Positions 4,040 through 48,238 are shown, numbered from the stretch's first letter. The stretch: 64,000 nt of DNA from Candidatus Magasanikiibacteriota bacterium (GCA_016182085.1 JACOYB010000004.1:275923-339922); one strand, 5' to 3'. Numbers and translations are program-made. Notes: generated by a model not told the origin, from the sequence alone.

Positions 4040-4444
4040 TTATTCGGTAACTTTCAAAGTACCCCATTGACCACCAGCTCTGTGGCCGGGTTTGGAGCAG
4101 TAGTAAACAAATTCTCCGGCTTTGTCGGCGGTAAATTCAACGACCGTTTCTTGATTAAGCGGTAATTCTTTGGCAACGGTAAATTCATCAATGACAAAGT
4201 CGTGCACGCCCAAAGTGTTGGTGATTTTAACTTTTACTTTGTCTCCTTTTTTTATATTCATTTCTGGAAGAGAGAAAATTGGTTTTTTGAGAGCCGGATC
4301 ATAATATGCGGTCATGGTGAATTCTTTAACCGATTCAACTTTTGCATTTTCTTGTGTTGGAGCGGAAACTTTTTTTGCTTTCCACATATATGCAACGCCG
4401 CCAACTAGGGCTATAGCCAAAATGAGAACCACTGCTTTTTTCAT
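4040..4444 (-). CDS. membrane-anchored cupredoxin-like (blue-copper-type) protein
   Basis: Start moved to ATG 4444 (MKKAVVLILAIALVGGVAYMW, an N-terminal TM anchor). The C-terminus GVHDF…YYCSKPGHRAGGQWGTLKV matches the His/Cys/His loop pattern of type-1 copper sites; the axial ligand may be Gln instead of Met. Confidence 0.55.
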   Translation of the reverse strand: MKKAVVLILAIALVGGVAYMWKAKKVSAPTQENAKVESVKEFTMTAYYDPALKKPIFSLPEMNIKKGDKVKVKITNTLGVHDFVIDEFTVAKELPLNQETVVEFTADKAGEFVYYCSKPGHRAGGQWGTLKVTE

Positions 4445-4577
4445 ATACGAAATGAGTGAGAGAACTAAATTAAATGTACTTAATTTAGTCCCGAACGAAT
4501 AAAATATAAAGCTATAGGTGAGATAATCAATGCTACATAAATGTATTATATCACTGCTCAAAACAATATTCTAGTTT

Positions 4578-4961
4578 TTATTTTTCATAAATTTCAATCG
4601 GCAACCCATCAGGATCTCTAAAGAACGTAAATTTTTTATTTGTAATCTCATCCACCCGCACTTCTTCGGCTTCAACACCTCTATCACTCAAATCCTTAAC
4701 CGTCTTTTCAATAGACTCTACTTCAAAAGCCAAATGCCGCAATCCGCAAGCTTCAGGGTTGGAAATTCTAGTTGGGGGATTGGGGAATGAAAAAAGTTCA
4801 ATTTGTGATCCGGCAATACTAATATCCAGTTTATACGAATTACGTTCGGCTCGGTATGTTTCTTTAATGATGCTGCCGCCTAATATATCCGTATAAAAAG
4901 ATTTTGATTTTTGGTAATCAGAGCAGATAATAGCAGTATGATGAACTTTATTAAATTTCAT
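4578..4961 (-). CDS. VOC / glyoxalase-family protein
   Basis: 127 aa. HHTAIICSDYQKSKSFYTDILG … GLRHLAFEV… is the glyoxalase/bleomycin-resistance fold pattern. Confidence 0.7.
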   Translation of the reverse strand: MKFNKVHHTAIICSDYQKSKSFYTDILGGSIIKETYRAERNSYKLDISIAGSQIELFSFPNPPTRISNPEACGLRHLAFEVESIEKTVKDLSDRGVEAEEVRVDEITNKKFTFFRDPDGLPIEIYEK

Positions 4962-4963
4962 AA

Positions 4964-7324
4964 TTATGGCGTTTTTATCACATGCCTAATCTTATACTGG
5001 CTCAGCGCTCCAATATGGCTCAAATCATCAATGCCAATCTTGCCAATATACAAGTACTTTATTTTTTCCACAGCATTGTCCTTTAAGTATTCTTCCACAG
5101 CTTGCAAACCTCTAAAATAAATCGTGTCGCGGGTAAACGCTATTTTTTTGCTTGTATCTGCCAGGCCGCGCTTAACTTTTACGCAGGTGCGCCAGGCCGA
5201 CTCGTCTCCCAACGCGTAATTACTTTTTACATAATGAAATAAATCTACAAATGACATTTCTTGCGCCAAATACGCGCCGATAGACCGCAGGGGCGCCCAA
5301 ATTGCTTTTTCTCCAAGCGGTACGCCCAAAGCGTGTTGATTGTATACAGCCAGCCCTTCTTCAGTAGCAATGTATCCGGCAGTGCCGACTTCAAACAGTT
5401 TATATTTTTGCAAACGGCTGTTTTCAGCCCTATAAATATGTGTTTCAATTTCGTGCGCAATCACTGCTTTAAGTCGGTTTTCGGTAAATATCACGCCTTC
5501 CCGTAGAAATATTGTGCCGTCCAGACTTATTGAAATATCATTTACACGGCCCGCGGCTATTTTTATATGCCAATTGGTTAGTTTGTGTTCTTCCAAAAAT
5601 AGCGTGAGCCGTTTTACAATTTGTTTGAAACTTAGTTTGGCGCTGTCATCGGGTTGAATCGGGTGTTCGTGAATATAGCGGACGGCTTGATCATATAGTA
5701 CGCGACTGGCTGGGCCATATAACTTTTCCGAAGCCTGCTGCAATTTTGGAGTATCCAATGATTCCAATAAATCTAATTTTGTCTCTATTTCAATTATTTT
5801 CTTTTTATATAGATTATATAACGGATGGTTAAGCGCCTCAGGCAGTGCTTTTAGGTCTTTTTTAATTTGAACAATAGGCAAAGAATGCGCGCGGTATAAA
5901 AATTGAGGCGAGCGAACGGGATTTTCTAGAAACGCTTGTTTTTCTTCATCGTGGTTTAATGGCCGCAGCAATCCGGCGATGGTAATTTTTTTATCTATTT
6001 CGTATAATTTTTTATCAATATTTTTTAGAATTTTTTCCGTTCGTTCACTATCAATTTTTGGACTTTGATAGGGCAGATGTTTGTTAAGCGCGCTATGAAT
6101 TGTAAAATGTTCAAGAAACTTGCCGCCAATAACCGCTTTATATGTTTGATTTTCCAAACTGCCAAAGGTGGCGGGAATGGTGAGCCGTTTGCCTTTTAAT
6201 TTAATATCAATAAAAGAATCTTCGGTTTCAATGTCGCTCAGACTGCGGTCAAGCAGAACGCCGTCATAATGCGGATCAATTTTTGCGAGGATGTGGTCGT
6301 ACTTGGTATTTAATAATTCTATATGTTCAAATAATCCGATTGCCGTACGGTTGGGAGCGCTTTCTTTTGTTTCTGCCGGCACATTAGAGCTGAAAAGCGC
6401 TTTGCATAGCTCAACACCCTTTTCAGGGCTTGGAACTTTCAGATCCGCCACTTTTTTTAATCGCGCGCGCAACGGAATTTGGCTGGCAATTTGAATAGAG
6501 AGGCCGGCTCGAGCATTAAGCTCCAATATTTTTATACCGTTTGTGGTAAGCGCCAAATCCGCGGCTAAAAATCCAATCTGACTGACTTTTTGCGCGTTAG
6601 CGGCAGCCAAAAGAATTTTGTCCCATTCAGGAATTTCTAAATCAGATAATTTTTCTCCGTTAGGCAAGGTGCGAATAAATTTTCCTTTGTGAACTGCATA
6701 GGCGGCGTTTCCAGTCGCAATATCAATACCTATGCCAACTGCCCCCAAATGTAAATTTGCTTTGCCCTGTGATTGTTCCGTAGGCAGGCGCAGCATGGCT
6801 AGGACTGGAATATAATTAAATACAATGATTCGGATATCGGGCAAACCTTGCTTAACGTATGGTTTAAAAAAATCATGAGCTATAAGCCGTTCTTCAATAA
6901 TTGCCTGATCGTATAAGCCTGATATGGCATATTCTCCGTCTAAGATAGAAGAGATATGCCGGCTAATATCTTGCCAGCTATGTTCCTGGCCGCTAATATC
7001 TATAAAATTTCCGCTTTTTTTTTCTACAAATACCACAATGCCTTCGCCGCCATACCCATGGTTTGGTTTGATGACAAAATTGTCCGGCAGGCTTTTGGGA
7101 TTAAAATGTTTGAGTTCGTTATAATTTTTAATTACGGTATATACTTTGGCCGCGCCCAGCCCTCGTGACTGCAAATAATTTTTGGTAAACATTTTATCAT
7201 CAGCAAAACTTTTATTGGCTTTGGAATTAAATCTGCTGATATACAAAAGATTGCGCGCGTTAATGCCGAGCACGCCGGATAATCGTTCAAAAAAAGATAA
7301 TTTGTACTGATGGGATAGCGCCAT
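4964..7324 (-). CDS. fusion protein: N-terminal ATP-grasp ligase (alpha-L-glutamate-ligase-like) plus C-terminal QEGLA/DUF1704 metallopeptidase-like domain
   Basis: 786 aa. The N-terminal roughly 300 aa carry ATP-grasp signatures (FVIKPNHGYGGEGIVV; LELNARAGLSIQIAS = E-x-N Mg site). The C-terminal roughly 300 aa carry HEIETHIYRAEN…GYIATEEGLAVYNQ, i.e. an HExxxH-like motif and the QEGLA-type EEGLA motif of 'flavohemoglobin expression-modulating QEGLA' proteins. ATG confirmed at 7322-7324. Confidence 0.7.
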   Translation of the reverse strand: MALSHQYKLSFFERLSGVLGINARNLLYISRFNSKANKSFADDKMFTKNYLQSRGLGAAKVYTVIKNYNELKHFNPKSLPDNFVIKPNHGYGGEGIVVFVEKKSGNFIDISGQEHSWQDISRHISSILDGEYAISGLYDQAIIEERLIAHDFFKPYVKQGLPDIRIIVFNYIPVLAMLRLPTEQSQGKANLHLGAVGIGIDIATGNAAYAVHKGKFIRTLPNGEKLSDLEIPEWDKILLAAANAQKVSQIGFLAADLALTTNGIKILELNARAGLSIQIASQIPLRARLKKVADLKVPSPEKGVELCKALFSSNVPAETKESAPNRTAIGLFEHIELLNTKYDHILAKIDPHYDGVLLDRSLSDIETEDSFIDIKLKGKRLTIPATFGSLENQTYKAVIGGKFLEHFTIHSALNKHLPYQSPKIDSERTEKILKNIDKKLYEIDKKITIAGLLRPLNHDEEKQAFLENPVRSPQFLYRAHSLPIVQIKKDLKALPEALNHPLYNLYKKKIIEIETKLDLLESLDTPKLQQASEKLYGPASRVLYDQAVRYIHEHPIQPDDSAKLSFKQIVKRLTLFLEEHKLTNWHIKIAAGRVNDISISLDGTIFLREGVIFTENRLKAVIAHEIETHIYRAENSRLQKYKLFEVGTAGYIATEEGLAVYNQHALGVPLGEKAIWAPLRSIGAYLAQEMSFVDLFHYVKSNYALGDESAWRTCVKVKRGLADTSKKIAFTRDTIYFRGLQAVEEYLKDNAVEKIKYLYIGKIGIDDLSHIGALSQYKIRHVIKTP

Positions 7325-7326
7325 AC

Positions 7327-8859
7327 CTATTCTTGATGTTCGGTAAGCAGGCTTCTAAATCGGAAATATTCGGCTATGCGTAAGCCGGTGAATTTGCCCA
7401 AGAGAAGTGTGGCTATAACCGGTACAAGCACCAGTTCGGGCCATGATAGTAATACGTTATTAAAGTAAGCCCAAGTAATAAAATAGTAGGAAGCAATAAC
7501 AATAAGAAGCGTGCCAGCTACGGCTACAATCGCATTGCGAACACCCTCTTCGTTTTGCGCGGCCATAAATTTTTCCGAAACGGTTGACATCACAAGCATT
7601 GGGAATATGGCCATAGAAAGCGGCACGGAGGTGCCATATTGCAAGGCCAGCCAAATTACAAATAAAAATGAGAGACTGATTAAAGCTAAATGGAGAGCCA
7701 TTTTTGGCAGGTACAATAATTCAAATTTGTTCAAAATAAATTTGGCAATATAGCCGATTACCACCGCGAAAATAAAGGTAAGAATGCCAAGCCCTAAACC
7801 GAGGATAAAGAATGAAATGGCAATGATGACCGGGGTATAGACGCCAAATGCGCTAATACCGATGACTTGTCTGGCAAACGAAGCAATGAAAGCCAGAAAT
7901 GGCACGATAAGAATGATATATACAATATTGGAAGAGACGCCTTTGGAAACCAAATCAGTCACAAAGTGAGAAAGAAGAAAGACTGATGATTTATCACCGC
8001 GCTGATCTATAATCCTATATTCAATACTCCGACTTTGGAGAGTACCGGTTATCTGGTCTGTTTCTTTGGTGATAAAAATAGGATTAATCGCTTCTTTGCG
8101 AGTGAGGAGAATATAACTTGGCTCCACCAAATTAAACGTTTGATAAGCTAGGTTGGAAATAGTGTTTAGGTCGCTGTCAGAGATAACGGCAAAAAATTTA
8201 TTTTTAATGATGGTTTTATCTTCCGGTTTTAAATCTTTCCAGTACAGATTAAACGCCTGCATGCCAAGCGGTGATTGGGTGTAAAAAATCAACACATTTG
8301 AATCTTTGATATAGTCTGTGTTTTCTTTTATTTTCTGTACCAGAGCATCTTCGGTAAGAAGCGCGCCTTCCTTTTCGGCTATAGGCAAAAGCTGCAAAGC
8401 TACGCCGTTTTCGGCGGCTTGGGTTTGTAAATTTTTAATTCCTTCTTGGTTTTTTTGATCAATAATAAGCAAGGCGCTATTGTTAAAAACAAAGATGTCT
8501 TTGCTTATGCTGGCGGTTGAGGTAGCTTGGCGAATGGTAAGCGTGATAGTTTTTTTTCCTACGGTTGAGAATTGCTGCACGATTTCTTTGCCCGTTACCT
8601 TGGGGCCGCTGCCAAAATCCCAAACATATTCCGCAGGGGTGGTAGAAGATAATAGAGTTGAATCAGAAGCGTCAAAGATAACTTTTTTATTTATCCGTAC
8701 CAGGTCATCGGAAGTAATTATAGCTTCAAGTTGTTTAGTTGGTTGCAGAGGCTGGGGAGCGGGGGAAGTTGCCACGGTTTGGGCATGTATAGAAGACGGG
8801 ATTGCAGTTGCCAGTAGAAAATAAAGAATAGAGTATAGTGATACTATTTTTTTCTTCAT
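7327..8859 (-). CDS. 7TM membrane protein with large N-terminal extracytoplasmic domain (inactive-transglutaminase-fused 7TM / UUP1-like)
   Basis: 510 aa with a signal peptide MKKKIVSLYSILYFLLATAIPSSIHAQ and a roughly 290-aa soluble domain. Seven hydrophobic helices fill the C-terminal 200 aa. It lies immediately downstream of the ATP-grasp/QEGLA fusion, 2-nt gap. Confidence 0.6.
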   Translation of the reverse strand: MKKKIVSLYSILYFLLATAIPSSIHAQTVATSPAPQPLQPTKQLEAIITSDDLVRINKKVIFDASDSTLLSSTTPAEYVWDFGSGPKVTGKEIVQQFSTVGKKTITLTIRQATSTASISKDIFVFNNSALLIIDQKNQEGIKNLQTQAAENGVALQLLPIAEKEGALLTEDALVQKIKENTDYIKDSNVLIFYTQSPLGMQAFNLYWKDLKPEDKTIIKNKFFAVISDSDLNTISNLAYQTFNLVEPSYILLTRKEAINPIFITKETDQITGTLQSRSIEYRIIDQRGDKSSVFLLSHFVTDLVSKGVSSNIVYIILIVPFLAFIASFARQVIGISAFGVYTPVIIAISFFILGLGLGILTFIFAVVIGYIAKFILNKFELLYLPKMALHLALISLSFLFVIWLALQYGTSVPLSMAIFPMLVMSTVSEKFMAAQNEEGVRNAIVAVAGTLLIVIASYYFITWAYFNNVLLSWPELVLVPVIATLLLGKFTGLRIAEYFRFRSLLTEHQE

Positions 8860-8991
8860 ATTATATAGTATTGATTTTAGAAACTTACTATATCATAGGA
8901 AAGCAGCCGAGACAATAAATACATTGACAAAATTATTCTGTAGGATTACTGTTATTACTGATTCTTTTTATGTTTTAAACAAGTAAAACGT

Positions 8992-9927
8992 ATGAAAAAA
9001 CTTGCTATATATTTTTCCGATCCCGAACCGATGGGCTACCCGTTTAATTCCAAGTATCCCTATTGGGAAATTTATCAAGGCATCATTAAAGATATAGAAG
9101 CGCAAGGGCATAGTGTGTATGTTGTTCGCGGTAATTCATATCTCGGCAAGGGCGTATTTTCACATGGCTGGCGAGTTATAGACGATAGGATGGCGCCGGT
9201 AGCTGAGCCGATTACCGTAGATTTAATTTTCAACCGTGATGACAAAAATACCATCCCCGCAATTTACGATTGTCCGATCATAAATCATCCGGATTTGGAT
9301 AGATTATGCGTAGACAAGGTTGAGACCGCAAAATTTTTTCCCGAGCTTTCGCCCAAAACTAAAGCCATTAATTCATACCAGGAATATTTGGGTGCAATTA
9401 AGGAATGGGGTTTTGGTCCGGAAGAAAAGATTGTTTTAAAAAAGAATTTTTTGTCCGGCGGCCGCGGCATTTATATTCGTCCTATAAAAGAGATTGCCGA
9501 ATCATTATATGATGACTGGAAAGATATTCTTGTTCAAGAATTTGTAGACAATTCCATTGGAATTCCGGAAATAATTGAAGGTTTGCACGATATTCGCGTA
9601 GTTACTATAAATGGCGAACCGGTATATACGTTTGTACGCGTACCCCCAGCCGGATCATTTTTAGCCAATGTTTCCCAGGGTGGCACCGAGATACCGTTAA
9701 GTTTAAGCAAGCTTCCGAACAATTTGTTGAAATTGGTTGAAGAAGTAAATAAAAAGCTGTCTCATTATAGGCCAAGCATGTTTGCTTCGGACTTTGTTAA
9801 TTCTAAAAATGGATTTAAGCTGGTAGAACTTAATTCTCGCCCAGCTGTCTGTATCCCTTCACTTTCTTCGGAAACCAAAAATTATATTGATAAGATTGTG
9901 CAGCTCCTTGTAAAAGAGCTGTCCTAA
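8992..9927 (+). CDS. RimK/GshB-like ATP-grasp ligase, paralog 1
   Basis: 311 aa. FLANVSQGGTE (N-x-SQGG loop) and VELNSRPA (Mg-binding E-x-N) are ATP-grasp hallmarks. Confidence 0.7.
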   Translation: MKKLAIYFSDPEPMGYPFNSKYPYWEIYQGIIKDIEAQGHSVYVVRGNSYLGKGVFSHGWRVIDDRMAPVAEPITVDLIFNRDDKNTIPAIYDCPIINHPDLDRLCVDKVETAKFFPELSPKTKAINSYQEYLGAIKEWGFGPEEKIVLKKNFLSGGRGIYIRPIKEIAESLYDDWKDILVQEFVDNSIGIPEIIEGLHDIRVVTINGEPVYTFVRVPPAGSFLANVSQGGTEIPLSLSKLPNNLLKLVEEVNKKLSHYRPSMFASDFVNSKNGFKLVELNSRPAVCIPSLSSETKNYIDKIVQLLVKELS

Positions 9928-9949
9928 AATTATTTGCCTGCTTAACCCT

Positions 9950-10912
9950 ATGAAAAAACTCGCTATTTATTTTTCCAATCCCAAACCAATGGGCGATCCG
10001 TTTGATTTGCGGTATCCATATTGGCAGATTTATAAAGAAATAATTAGAAACGTGGAAAAACAGGGGATAGATGTATATGTTACCAGAGCCAAAGATTCGT
10101 ATTTGGGTAAGGGTGTTTTTACCCATGGTTGGAAAGTAGATGGGAAACAATTGATAGAAATAAATGAGCAAATTACCGTAGATTTAATTTTTCATCGCGG
10201 CAGCCAAGCCACCATCCCCGCGACCTATGATTGTCCGATCATAAATCATCCGGATCTGGAACGATTTTGTGGAGATAAGATAAAAGTAAACCAAGTATTT
10301 GCCGATATTTCTCCCAAAACTAAAGCTATTAATTCATACCAAGAATACCGAGATACCATTAAAGAATGGAATTTTAATCCTGAAGACAAGATTGTCGTAA
10401 AGAAGAATTTTCTCTACGGCGGGCACGGAGTATATATTCGCCCGATAAAAGAAATTACCGAATCGCTTTATGAAAATTGGCGCGATATTTTAATGCAAGA
10501 ATTCGTTGATAGTTCGGGGGGTATTCCCGGGATTGTTGAAGGCTTGCATGATATACGCGTAGTAACTATTAACGGCGAGCCAGTATATTCGTTTGTGCGA
10601 ACTCCTCCCGTTGGATCGTTTTTAGCCAATGTTTCCCAAGGAGGCGCGGAAAAGGCAGTGCCACTTTCCCAATTACCTGCGGAATTATTACAATTAGTTG
10701 AAAGAGTAAATAAGGAATTAGCACAGTACAGGCCCAGCATCTTTGCTTCCGACTTTTTCAATTCCAAAAACGGTTTTAAATTGATTGAATTAAATTCCCG
10801 TCCGGCTGTGTGCGACCCGGCCCAATCTCCGGAAACCAGAAATTATATTGATAAGATTATCCAATTACTCGTCAATACCATCAATAATTCTTTTAAAATG
10901 GAGAAAAATTAA
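9950..10912 (+). CDS. RimK/GshB-like ATP-grasp ligase, paralog 2 (tandem duplicate of 8992-9927)
   Basis: 320 aa, roughly 65% identical to the upstream paralog along its whole length (MKKLAIYFS.P.PMG.PF…IINHPDL…FLANVSQGG…ELNSRPAVC). Confidence 0.7.
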   Translation: MKKLAIYFSNPKPMGDPFDLRYPYWQIYKEIIRNVEKQGIDVYVTRAKDSYLGKGVFTHGWKVDGKQLIEINEQITVDLIFHRGSQATIPATYDCPIINHPDLERFCGDKIKVNQVFADISPKTKAINSYQEYRDTIKEWNFNPEDKIVVKKNFLYGGHGVYIRPIKEITESLYENWRDILMQEFVDSSGGIPGIVEGLHDIRVVTINGEPVYSFVRTPPVGSFLANVSQGGAEKAVPLSQLPAELLQLVERVNKELAQYRPSIFASDFFNSKNGFKLIELNSRPAVCDPAQSPETRNYIDKIIQLLVNTINNSFKMEKN

Positions 10913-10938
10913 AACAGGCTATATTACTAGCCTGTTTT
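10911..10938 (+). terminator. intrinsic terminator after the ATP-grasp pair
   Basis: aaaacaggc-tatattacta-gcctgtttt is a perfect 9-bp stem followed by a T-run. Confidence 0.55.
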
Positions 10939-10967
10939 AATTTTTGTTGTTCTTAATTACTATTCGC

Positions 10968-47731: not shown

Positions 47732-47935
47732 AATACGCAGAGATAGTTTTGGTGTCGCGGGGCGATGCCAGGATAAAGGCTGTGATATTAAAAGGGTGTA
47801 AAATTTGCGCTCCCCAGTGATTGGGGAGTACTTCATACCTTGTCCACCGCAAGATCCCACCCTGTAAGAATGCTGGTATTCTTACAGGTCTTTTTAATTT
47901 GCCAATAACCCTTGTTTTTAGTAGAATTACCATAT

Positions 47936-48238
47936 ATGCCACTCTCCACTCAAGAAGTAAAAAAAATTGCTCAGCTCGCGCGAATCAAACTAACGTCCGA
48001 AGAAGAAGCCAGACATGCCGAAACTATTTCGGCCGTTTTAGATTACATGAATATTTTAAATGAAGTAGATACAAGCGGGGTGGAACCAACCTTTCAGGTA
48101 ACCGGACTGGAAGATGTAACCCGAATAGATGAACCAAGAGACTGTAAAATAACAAAAGAATTAATGGCCCAAATGCCGGAAGTGGAAAATGCCGAGCTGG
48201 TCGTGCCGGGCGTATTTGCCGGAACCGAAGAAGAATAA
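47936..48238 (+). CDS. gatC: Asp/Glu-tRNA amidotransferase subunit C
   Basis: Start at ATG 47936 (MPLSTQEVKKIAQLARIKLTSEEE…, the canonical GatC N-terminus). The track start is TTG. Confidence 0.85.
   Translation: MPLSTQEVKKIAQLARIKLTSEEEARHAETISAVLDYMNILNEVDTSGVEPTFQVTGLEDVTRIDEPRDCKITKELMAQMPEVENAELVVPGVFAGTEEE

Follow-up and report, generated by a model that had tools for sequence, protein, structure and literature searches.

What might a gene-poor bacterium of the Patescibacteria (the candidate phyla radiation, CPR) do with an amino-acid ligase and a peptidase that share one polypeptide chain and are encoded next to a seven-transmembrane (7TM) protein? The locus that raises this question lies in a stretch of 64,000 nucleotides from Candidatus Magasanikiibacteriota bacterium (GCA_016182085.1 JACOYB010000004.1:275923-339922), hereafter the window, in which the original prediction had listed four neighbouring open reading frames (ORFs); all four were found exactly where it had put them, at 4964-7324 (-), 7327-8859 (-), 8992-9927 (+) and 9950-10912 (+). 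The two minus-strand genes form the cassette in question: gene 1 (7327..8859) encodes the membrane protein (510 aa; signal peptide, an ectodomain of a PKD and a flavodoxin-like alpha/beta domain, PF14402 and a predicted cytoplasmic tail), and gene 2 (4964..7324) a cytoplasmic fusion enzyme of 786 aa. Judged by its sequence, the locus appears to be the Patescibacteria version of a system of the rloB-rloC type, itself related to RimK-RimB. We suggest by analogy, and with a confidence that stops just short of even, that ligase and fused carboxypeptidase both work on the cytoplasmic -EE tail of the 7TM protein, the one lengthening it and the other trimming it back.

The fusion enzyme comprises three domains, of which the original prediction had missed the second: an ATP-grasp ligase, a degenerate retropepsin-like domain and a MATCAP metallocarboxypeptidase. 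Its AlphaFold2 model (predicted local distance difference test, pLDDT, 88.3; predicted template-modelling score, pTM, 0.53) lays these out as an ATP-grasp fold (residues ~22-312), a disordered linker (314-324), a beta-rich region (~325-410) and a helical region (~426-786). Searches with hidden Markov models confirmed both domain identities that had been proposed, ATP-grasp and QEGLA/DUF1704, by placing PF14397 and PF08014 in the protein. The Pfam models are said to go back to Iyer et al. 2009. For the RloC/TIGR02291-like ligase domain (6389..7261, minus strand; aa ~22-312), the match to PF14397 (ATPgrasp_ST, aa 24-292) has an E-value of 2e-57 and 194.8 bits against a cut-off of 31.4, and the NCBIfam model TIGR02291, 'alpha-L-glutamate ligase-like', matches at E 2e-77 with 260.2 bits, under its equivalog cut-off of 314.2. 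The domain is 38% identical to RloC of Aeromonas across 299 aa (E 4e-61), and both carry an N-terminal GILGxNxRN motif. An alignment of 89 homologs (43-84% identity), which is behind all residue-conservation counts given here, shows no variation at K86, E144, E145, D256, E268, N270 or R272, and the ATP-grasp catalytic set of ATP-binding Lys, Mg-binding D/E-x-N and Arg is intact. When the fusion model was compared with the PDB by Foldseek, the best solved ATP-grasp matches were RimK (including the RimK-RpsF complex 5zk6), ArgX/LysX (3vpb and 5k2m among them) and PsnB.

The C-terminal part (4967..6049, minus strand; aa ~426-786) is a metallocarboxypeptidase domain of the MATCAP/TMCP type, formerly DUF1704/QEGLA. 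It matches PF08014, the renamed DUF1704 model, at aa 471-777 (E 1e-39, 137 bits against a cut-off of 27), and TIGR02421 (QEGLA) at E 5e-47 with 160.8 bits, under the cut-off of 338.65; the fusion is a relative of the TIGR02421 family rather than an equivalog, and its motif reads EEGLA instead of QEGLA. An HExxxH motif and a downstream EEG motif with the third metal ligand define the site of the MATCAP family (PMC10499314). The corresponding HEIETH (5438-5455) and EEGLA (5348-5362) motifs had been picked out in the original prediction, and they are indeed present and fall on the MATCAP metal site: phmmer aligned the domain to human MATCAP (7z5g) at E 2e-9, with HEIETH on HEIGTH and TEEGLA on TEEGLA, and H624, E625, H629, E655, E656 and G657 are invariant in the homologs. 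Entry 7z6s carries an inactivating E-to-Q change at the Glu equivalent to that of HEIETH. The top Foldseek matches in the PDB were again human MATCAP, 7z5g and 7z6s (E 1e-11 to 1e-10, target TM 0.61-0.67), and most of the domain is modelled with pLDDT >90. Since the catalytic residues are invariant, both enzyme domains are expected to be active.

The same cannot be said of the beta-rich domain between them (6077..6364, minus strand; aa ~321-416). Searched alone, it had no match in Pfam. In a comparison by hhalign, it aligned with the RimB-like domain of a group of shorter CPR fusion proteins with a probability of 98.8% (E 6e-17, 96 columns); these reference proteins of 420-500 aa consist, according to Pfam, of ATPgrasp_ST and RimB-like (PF05618) domains. 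Where they show AK[VI]D[TS]GA, the signature of retropepsins, the translation here reads AKIDPH (6269-6286), and the change of DTG to DPH is widely shared, with D in 79, P in 77 and H in 76 of the 89 homologs. The MATCAP fusions also lack an insert of ~55 residues found in the retropepsin domain of the short fusions. Thus, the middle domain is probably a catalytically degenerate domain of the RimB/RloA type that stayed on in a structural or binding role once MATCAP had been gained.

How widespread is this architecture? A search of 5.8 billion proteins returned the very same protein from a 410-kb contig, listed at NCBI as 'MAG: DUF1704 domain-containing protein [Candidatus Magasanikbacteria bacterium]', and at least 120 clusters, formed at 90% identity, of homologs of 760-811 aa, down to 43% identity and all with ATP-grasp and MATCAP Pfam domains; their named sources are Magasanik-, Kerfeld-, Buchanan-, Parcu- and Peregrinibacteria or the Patescibacteria group. 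Scanning 50%-identity representatives with HMMER gave 466 proteins at E<1e-30, including dozens of full-length fusions down to 28% identity. In addition, one genome per species was scanned, which yielded 553 genomes with a relative, and all locus counts below refer to the best 80 of these. Every one of them holds the full-length fusion, at 35-98% identity, and all are Patescibacteria, some unspecific or doubtful record labels aside. The ligase-MATCAP fusion is a hallmark of the CPR, and the view that it would be unexpected in a CPR-like genome has to be given up, as the named matches and the 80 loci agree on this origin. Several third-party metagenome records (TPA_asm MAG; L001, L002, L003, L005, L007, L009 and others) are labelled 'uncultured Gammaproteobacteria bacterium' and contain cassettes 57-98% identical to ours; on near-identical CPR contigs, these labels look wrong. 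Public names are uninformative ('DUF1704 domain-containing protein', 'tyrosine/phenylalanine carboxypeptidase domain-containing protein' or 'alpha-L-glutamate ligase-like protein/uncharacterized protein (TIGR02421 family)'). Our literature searches found no paper that deals with the fusion, its degenerate retropepsin domain or the Glu-ending 7TM tail, and those for DUF1704 or bacterial MATCAP together with ATP-grasp returned nothing. The system is a new variant of known ligase-peptidase systems, whose proteins themselves are already in public databases.

The fusion seldom stands alone. In 76 of the 80 loci a 7TM homolog lies immediately upstream on the same strand, and this near-universal adjacency backs the prediction that ligase, peptidase and 7TM protein are functionally linked; beyond synteny at the level of the lineage, the 80 loci showed no further conserved neighbour. 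In the window, the junction reads ...GAA CAT CAA GAA TAG gt ATG, with the start of the fusion gene following the 7TM stop codon after 2 nt. Accordingly, the 2-nt gap of the original prediction stands, whereas the 7TM gene, read on the coding strand, is upstream of the fusion gene and not downstream of it. Gene 2 may well be translationally coupled to gene 1. The promoter and terminator scans gave counts that were not above shuffled expectation for either, so the case for co-transcription of the cassette is made by the 2-nt gap and the conserved synteny.

The membrane protein was likewise described correctly in one half only. Its C-terminal half matches PF14402, 7TM_transglut (aa 308-504, E 1e-32, 113.6 bits against 25), as anticipated, whereas the expected inactive transglutaminase-like domain is missing from its N-terminal half, and its score against the full-length model NF052267 is under the cut-off. 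In place of that domain, there is an ectodomain made of a PKD and a flavodoxin-like alpha/beta domain. The AlphaFold2 model (pLDDT 85.8, pTM 0.74) shows a signal helix, a PKD beta-sandwich (~45-125) and the alpha/beta domain (127-290), followed by seven transmembrane helices (310-489) and an amphipathic helix (495-507). Homology to Aeromonas RloB is limited to the 7TM domain (26% identity, E 3e-20), in which no transporter homology is recognisable; the name 'UUP1', used for the protein in the original prediction, could not be traced in our literature search. From the signal peptide, the seven helices and K/R-rich loops and tail (the positive-inside rule), we infer an N-out/C-in topology, and the tail is therefore predicted to be cytoplasmic, on the side of the fusion enzyme.

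This tail (GLRIAEYFRFRSLLTEHQE; 7330..7386, minus strand) consists of a juxtamembrane amphipathic helix and a terminal Glu, which the original prediction had not noticed and which we regard as a candidate for the acceptor or substrate. Each of the 75 7TM ORFs in the cassettes has E as its last residue, 67 of the 75 have EE, and some have EEE and up to EEEEE; ahead of the terminal Glu come a GLRxxEYxRFR helix, which is conserved, and then 4-6 residues that vary. Among the 810 other ORFs of the same loci, 7.5% end in E and 0.74% in EE. The last two codons vary synonymously between GAA and GAG. Database homologs of the 7TM protein behave in the same way, 85 of 90 ending in 1-4 Glu. The remaining five (27-30% identity) lack a terminal Glu, and downstream of each lies the gene of an ATP-grasp–RimB-like fusion that has no MATCAP part, whereas two equally distant homologs ending in -EE are each followed by a MATCAP fusion. 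Taken together, a terminal Glu is present in 77 of 77 partners of MATCAP fusions as opposed to none of the five partners of ATP-grasp–RimB-like fusions, nor in Aeromonas RloB, which ends in ...SGATPGKDK and belongs to a system with a secreted retropepsin. On these counts (77/77 versus 0/5, plus 0/1), the terminal Glu goes with the carboxypeptidase domain.

The RimB-type cassettes behind this comparison resemble the MATCAP cassettes in having a PKD-7TM gene directly upstream, the same ligase and a homologous retropepsin domain in a fusion of 420-500 aa; they differ in that the DTGA signature is kept, the MATCAP domain is absent and the 7TM tails have unconserved ends without a terminal Glu. The five, about 420-470 aa long, lie at L082 7530-8876, L083 2890-4173, L084 3540-4865, L088 2175-3443 and L089 1857-3263. 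DTGA was read directly in L089, Pfam RimB-like matches back the other four, and 18 of 34 representative short fusions have a D[TS]GA signature. Cassettes of this type often follow ruvC and precede a gene for a class A penicillin-binding protein.

What reaction would such a tail undergo? RimK extends the -EE C-terminus of ribosomal protein S6 and makes poly-alpha-glutamate, and RimB trims it; LysX and ArgX acylate the C-terminal Glu of LysW; and on tubulin, -EE is the product state of the MATCAP reaction. By analogy, the ATP-grasp ligase would join at least one amino acid, at the expense of ATP, to the carboxylate group at the -EE end of the 7TM protein, the added residue most likely being Glu, as with RimK, or possibly a Tyr/Phe-like one, as with TTL. 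The fused MATCAP domain would remove added residues again, down to the encoded -EE, and a likely role of the degenerate retropepsin domain is to keep the acidic tail in place or to connect ligase and carboxypeptidase. The outcome would be a reversible mark, dependent on ATP and amino acids, that tunes an envelope-related activity of the membrane protein: a prokaryotic counterpart of TTL(L)/MATCAP on tubulin tails and of RimK/RimB on S6. A further-reaching idea, a tubulin-like 'tail code' of the CPR in which one fused ligase–carboxypeptidase reversibly modifies a genetically fixed -EE C-terminus of its 7TM partner, strikes us as possible but doubtful.

MATCAP/TMCP enzymes are HExxxH/EEG zinc carboxypeptidases that act on the acidic tails of tubulin, which they strip first of Tyr, then of Glu, and of polyglutamate too, and MATCAP E281A is catalytically dead (PMC10499314). 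Compared to the tubulin cycle of TTL/TTLL and MATCAP (7z5g, 7z6s; PMC10499314), the CPR domain is truly homologous to MATCAP, with which it has the HExxxH...EEG(LA) site and the fold in common, and, as we infer, an ATP-grasp ligase is opposed by a MATCAP carboxypeptidase at an acidic -EE tail here as well. On the other hand, sequence identity is ~20%, and the CPR ligase is RimK/RloC-like rather than TTL-like and shares its polypeptide with the carboxypeptidase; moreover, a 7TM protein takes the place of tubulin as candidate substrate, and microtubule-binding elements are not expected. With RimK–RimB and S6, the CPR cassette shares the pairing of an ATP-grasp ligase (for which RimK is the best solved structural match) with a reversing peptidase, as well as the candidate Glu-Glu acceptor. 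It differs in that its ligase is far under the RimK family cut-off, in the TIGR02291-like branch, that the putative acceptor is the tail of a membrane protein and not S6, and that the peptidase is a zinc carboxypeptidase, covalently fused to the ligase, and not an active aspartic peptidase.

The closest relative in layout is rloABC, found in Pseudomonas aeruginosa and other Gammaproteobacteria, in which RloA is a secreted retropepsin, RloB a 7TM protein with an inactive transglutaminase and RloC an ATP-grasp protein (PMC12239564). We located an rloABC-like locus of Aeromonas (L081; RloA-like 4282-5070, RloB 5074-6612, RloC 6616-7581). The record that holds it, Aeromonas caviae PLSDB NZ_AP026896.1 'plasmid pKAM479_3', is of chromosome size (4.94 Mb) and has 18 annotated features. 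The CPR ligase and 7TM domain are homologous to RloC and RloB, respectively, the 7TM gene precedes the ligase gene in both systems, and both include a retropepsin-type domain. In contrast, the CPR locus has no separate secreted RloA with DTG, its retropepsin domain being fused to the cytoplasmic ligase and bearing the signature DPH; it adds the MATCAP carboxypeptidase domain; PKD and flavodoxin-like domains replace the transglutaminase-like ectodomain of RloB; and the 7TM tail ends in -E/-EE, which that of Aeromonas RloB does not. RloA cleaves polyglutamate, and deletion of rloB or rloC suppresses the defects of an rloA triple mutant (PMC12239564), which puts ligase, 7TM protein and peptidase in one pathway. 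Observations on relatives bear on a possible role: rlo mutants are sensitive to hypo-osmotic conditions (PMC12239564), a mutant of the RloB homolog in Shewanella overproduces vesicles (PMC12096838), and low salinity induces a QEGLA gene of Photobacterium 27-fold, and rimK as well (PMC10308900). By analogy, these relatives point to the envelope and osmotic adaptation.

MATCAP also meets an ATP-grasp ligase outside the CPR. Proteobacterial QEGLA operons link the MATCAP/QEGLA domain genetically to an ATP-grasp ligase again; they differ from the CPR cassette in that the ligase is GshB-like, that there is an N-formylglutamate-amidohydrolase-like (FGase) gene or domain and that no 7TM gene is found in the three examples (L092 3448-7192, L093 3460-7222, L094 4104-7098). 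Aminobacter (pAA02) and Roseateles have the order FGase, QEGLA, GshB-like ATP-grasp; in Photobacterium sp. DA100, FGase and MATCAP are fused in a 662-aa protein that adjoins the GshB-like ligase. As these operons differ from the CPR cassette, MATCAP is tied to ATP-grasp in at least two unrelated bacterial contexts. The three gene types, ligase, 7TM and QEGLA, had been said to be usual neighbours. This was not seen in the three proteobacterial QEGLA loci, nor in Aeromonas rloABC, where the third gene next to TIGR02291 and 7TM is a retropepsin and not a QEGLA gene (PMC12239564).

Several points weigh against modification of the 7TM tail. The correlation between tail and peptidase stems from few independent lineages, and the five RimB-type examples may represent a single clade. 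Because RloBC- and RimB-type cassettes work with tail-less partners, the ligase–7TM partnership needs no Glu tail; the ancestral function may thus differ, for example synthesis and export of free poly-Glu, and the terminal Glu could serve for docking or as a mimic of the product instead of being the substrate. With a pTM of 0.53, the AlphaFold2 model of the fusion gives an inter-domain geometry of low confidence. Finally, four of the 80 loci have no recognisable 7TM gene beside the fusion. Genetic code 25 was tested as the cause and did not rescue these exceptions. In two of them, a very large signal-peptide protein precedes the fusion (L031 1812-4973, 1054 aa; L035 2995-9891, 2299 aa), which might contain a divergent membrane partner.

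Some of these points would be accommodated if the ligase polymerised Glu or another amino acid into free peptides and the 7TM protein exported these or fixed them at the envelope, with MATCAP and the retropepsin remnant limiting chain length or recycling the product in the cytoplasm and the Glu tail docking the enzyme as a mimic of product or primer. We regard this as unlikely, though it is the alternative that deserves most attention. RimK, after all, makes free poly-alpha-glutamate too. Secreted RloA cleaves polyglutamate of at least 8 residues, and the rescue of rloA mutants by rloB or rloC deletion (PMC12239564) fits a ligase product that crosses the membrane and is toxic unless degraded. 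RloB and the RimB-type CPR partners do without a Glu tail, RloB homologs have envelope phenotypes (PMC12239564, PMC12096838), and the PKD and alpha/beta ectodomains suggest an extracellular role. Yet both peptidase domains of the CPR system are fused to the cytoplasmic ligase, so degradation would not be extracellular; a terminal Glu that is invariant only alongside the carboxypeptidase is not predicted by free-peptide synthesis; and the lack of transporter homology in the 7TM domain speaks against export.

Alternatively, the target of the enzyme could be another protein of the cytoplasm whose C-terminus is acidic, such as S6, while the 7TM protein serves as regulator or sensor of an extracellular signal. 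That the ligase resembles RimK in structure, with the RimK-RpsF complex 5zk6 among the matches, would be in keeping with this, as would extracellular PKD and flavodoxin-like domains that could sense a signal and the induction of rimK and a QEGLA gene in Photobacterium at low salinity (PMC10308900). Nonetheless, the 7TM partner is the only conserved Glu-terminated protein linked to the enzyme by synteny. As a second Glu-tailed substrate within the window, only a GatC homolog (47909-48235, plus strand; …AGTEEE; PF02686, E 4e-14) came into consideration, being the sole other ORF that ends in EE, and this candidate was not retained. We therefore hold a target other than the 7TM tail to be improbable.

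Could the two plus-strand genes extend the pathway? The original prediction had taken three ATP-grasp domains in one locus as a sign of stepwise ligation, and in this form the fused ligase and the two stand-alone enzymes, agA and agB, would act sequentially on a multi-residue peptide tag. The genes themselves are largely as described: agA (8992..9927) is a stand-alone GshB/RimK-like ATP-grasp gene, agB (9950..10912) is its tandem duplicate, they are 69% identical, and they diverge from the cassette across a shared spacer of 132 bp (8860..8991). Matches to PF08443 (agA, E 2e-7, 31.6 bits; agB, E 5e-10, 39.7 bits; cut-off 21) and, for agA, PF02955 (E 2e-7) are weak, and both proteins score under the cut-off of the RimK family TIGR00768 (39.5 and 41.3 bits against 143.4). 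Both retain the ELNSRP ATP-grasp motif. A homolog abuts 11 of the 80 cassettes in two arrangements, divergent as here in three close relatives (L001, L003, L004) and on the same strand directly upstream in eight loci (L013, L016, L017, L019, L025, L027, L028, L029; 45-48% identity). The family counts ~100 clusters without a functional name, and its sources, where a taxon is given, are Patescibacteria but for one Paucibacter entry.

Together with the pairing of proteobacterial MATCAP genes with a GshB-like ATP-grasp and FGase, and a CPR locus (L086 6211-8862) in which an FGase gene is followed by two tandem agB-like ATP-grasp genes, these 11 adjacencies and the retained motif are what a sequential pathway can call on. 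This latter locus echoes the proteobacterial FGase/ligase/MATCAP grouping, which hints at a role of agA and agB in an FGase-linked pathway. Set against this, no such gene is found beside 69 of the 80 cassettes, three more distant homologs lie in contexts unrelated to the cassette (one of them after an FGase gene), and divergent transcription keeps agA and agB outside the cassette operon. As counterparts of the proteobacterial QEGLA-linked GshB-like ligase they were also considered; the pairwise similarity is E 1e-4, a weak lead. Given adjacency in 11 of 80 loci and distant homologs elsewhere, the tandem ligases are facultative neighbours, and agA/agB are an accessory or independent module outside the core; stepwise ligation by all three enzymes thus finds little support, and we give it a low probability. 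Lastly, there is next to no chance that two genes were merged into the 786-aa ORF by an assembly error or a frameshift: a few shorter database entries (P0124, 450 aa; P0162, 372 aa) could be split genes or contig-end fragments, but the same full-length architecture, with linker and middle domain conserved, recurs in no fewer than 80 genomes, assembled independently of one another, and in 120 or more clusters, which excludes a merger and shows the fusion to be genuine, as originally maintained.

Some features around the cassette deserve mention. In the divergent intergenic region, a promoter-like TTGTCT-17-TATAGT (8915..8887, minus strand) occupies a plausible promoter position, with the reservation that consensus matches were not above shuffled expectation. 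A perfect hairpin with an 18-bp stem (AAAAATTAAAACAGGCTA…TAGCCTGTTTTAATTTTT; 10904-10945) overlaps the agB stop codon, and this palindrome is plausible as a bidirectional terminator. On the other side, a VOC (glyoxalase-like) gene of the YaeR/SMU1112c type (4578-4961, minus strand) begins 2 nt past the stop codon of the fusion gene and is followed by a gene for a cupredoxin-like membrane-anchored protein (4040-4561, minus strand). The downstream VOC/glyoxalase gene is present again in only one close relative, and since the closest relative is also the only one to have the pair, the two genes probably do not belong to the system. Elsewhere in the window, a match to the group I catalytic intron model RF00028 (22743-23019, plus strand) covers the full model length with 73.9 bits against a gathering score of 50; it lies between or overlaps the ORFs 22505-22831 (no Pfam match) and 23132-23458 (DsrE-like), upstream of a ResIII/DEAD helicase gene (23592-25748). 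No host gene for it is evident in the window, where ARAGORN found no tRNA and Rfam no rRNA. Positions 20001-22000 are strongly skewed in composition (GC 0.358, GC skew +0.325, AT skew +0.197) and coincide with an ORF of 727 aa (20205-22388, plus strand) without a Pfam match.

With ligase and peptidase in one chain, the CPR cassette points to one candidate substrate, the invariant Glu terminus of the membrane protein encoded with it. If true, reversible ligation of amino acids to a C-terminus would be known for the first time from a membrane protein of a prokaryote, and the cassette would name the kind of substrate long sought for bacterial MATCAP homologs and RloC-type ligases. The opposition of ligase and MATCAP on acidic -EE tails would then have a prokaryotic counterpart, and possibly a prokaryotic origin. 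For the Patescibacteria themselves, it would offer a way into a widespread envelope-associated regulatory system of their otherwise gene-poor genomes.

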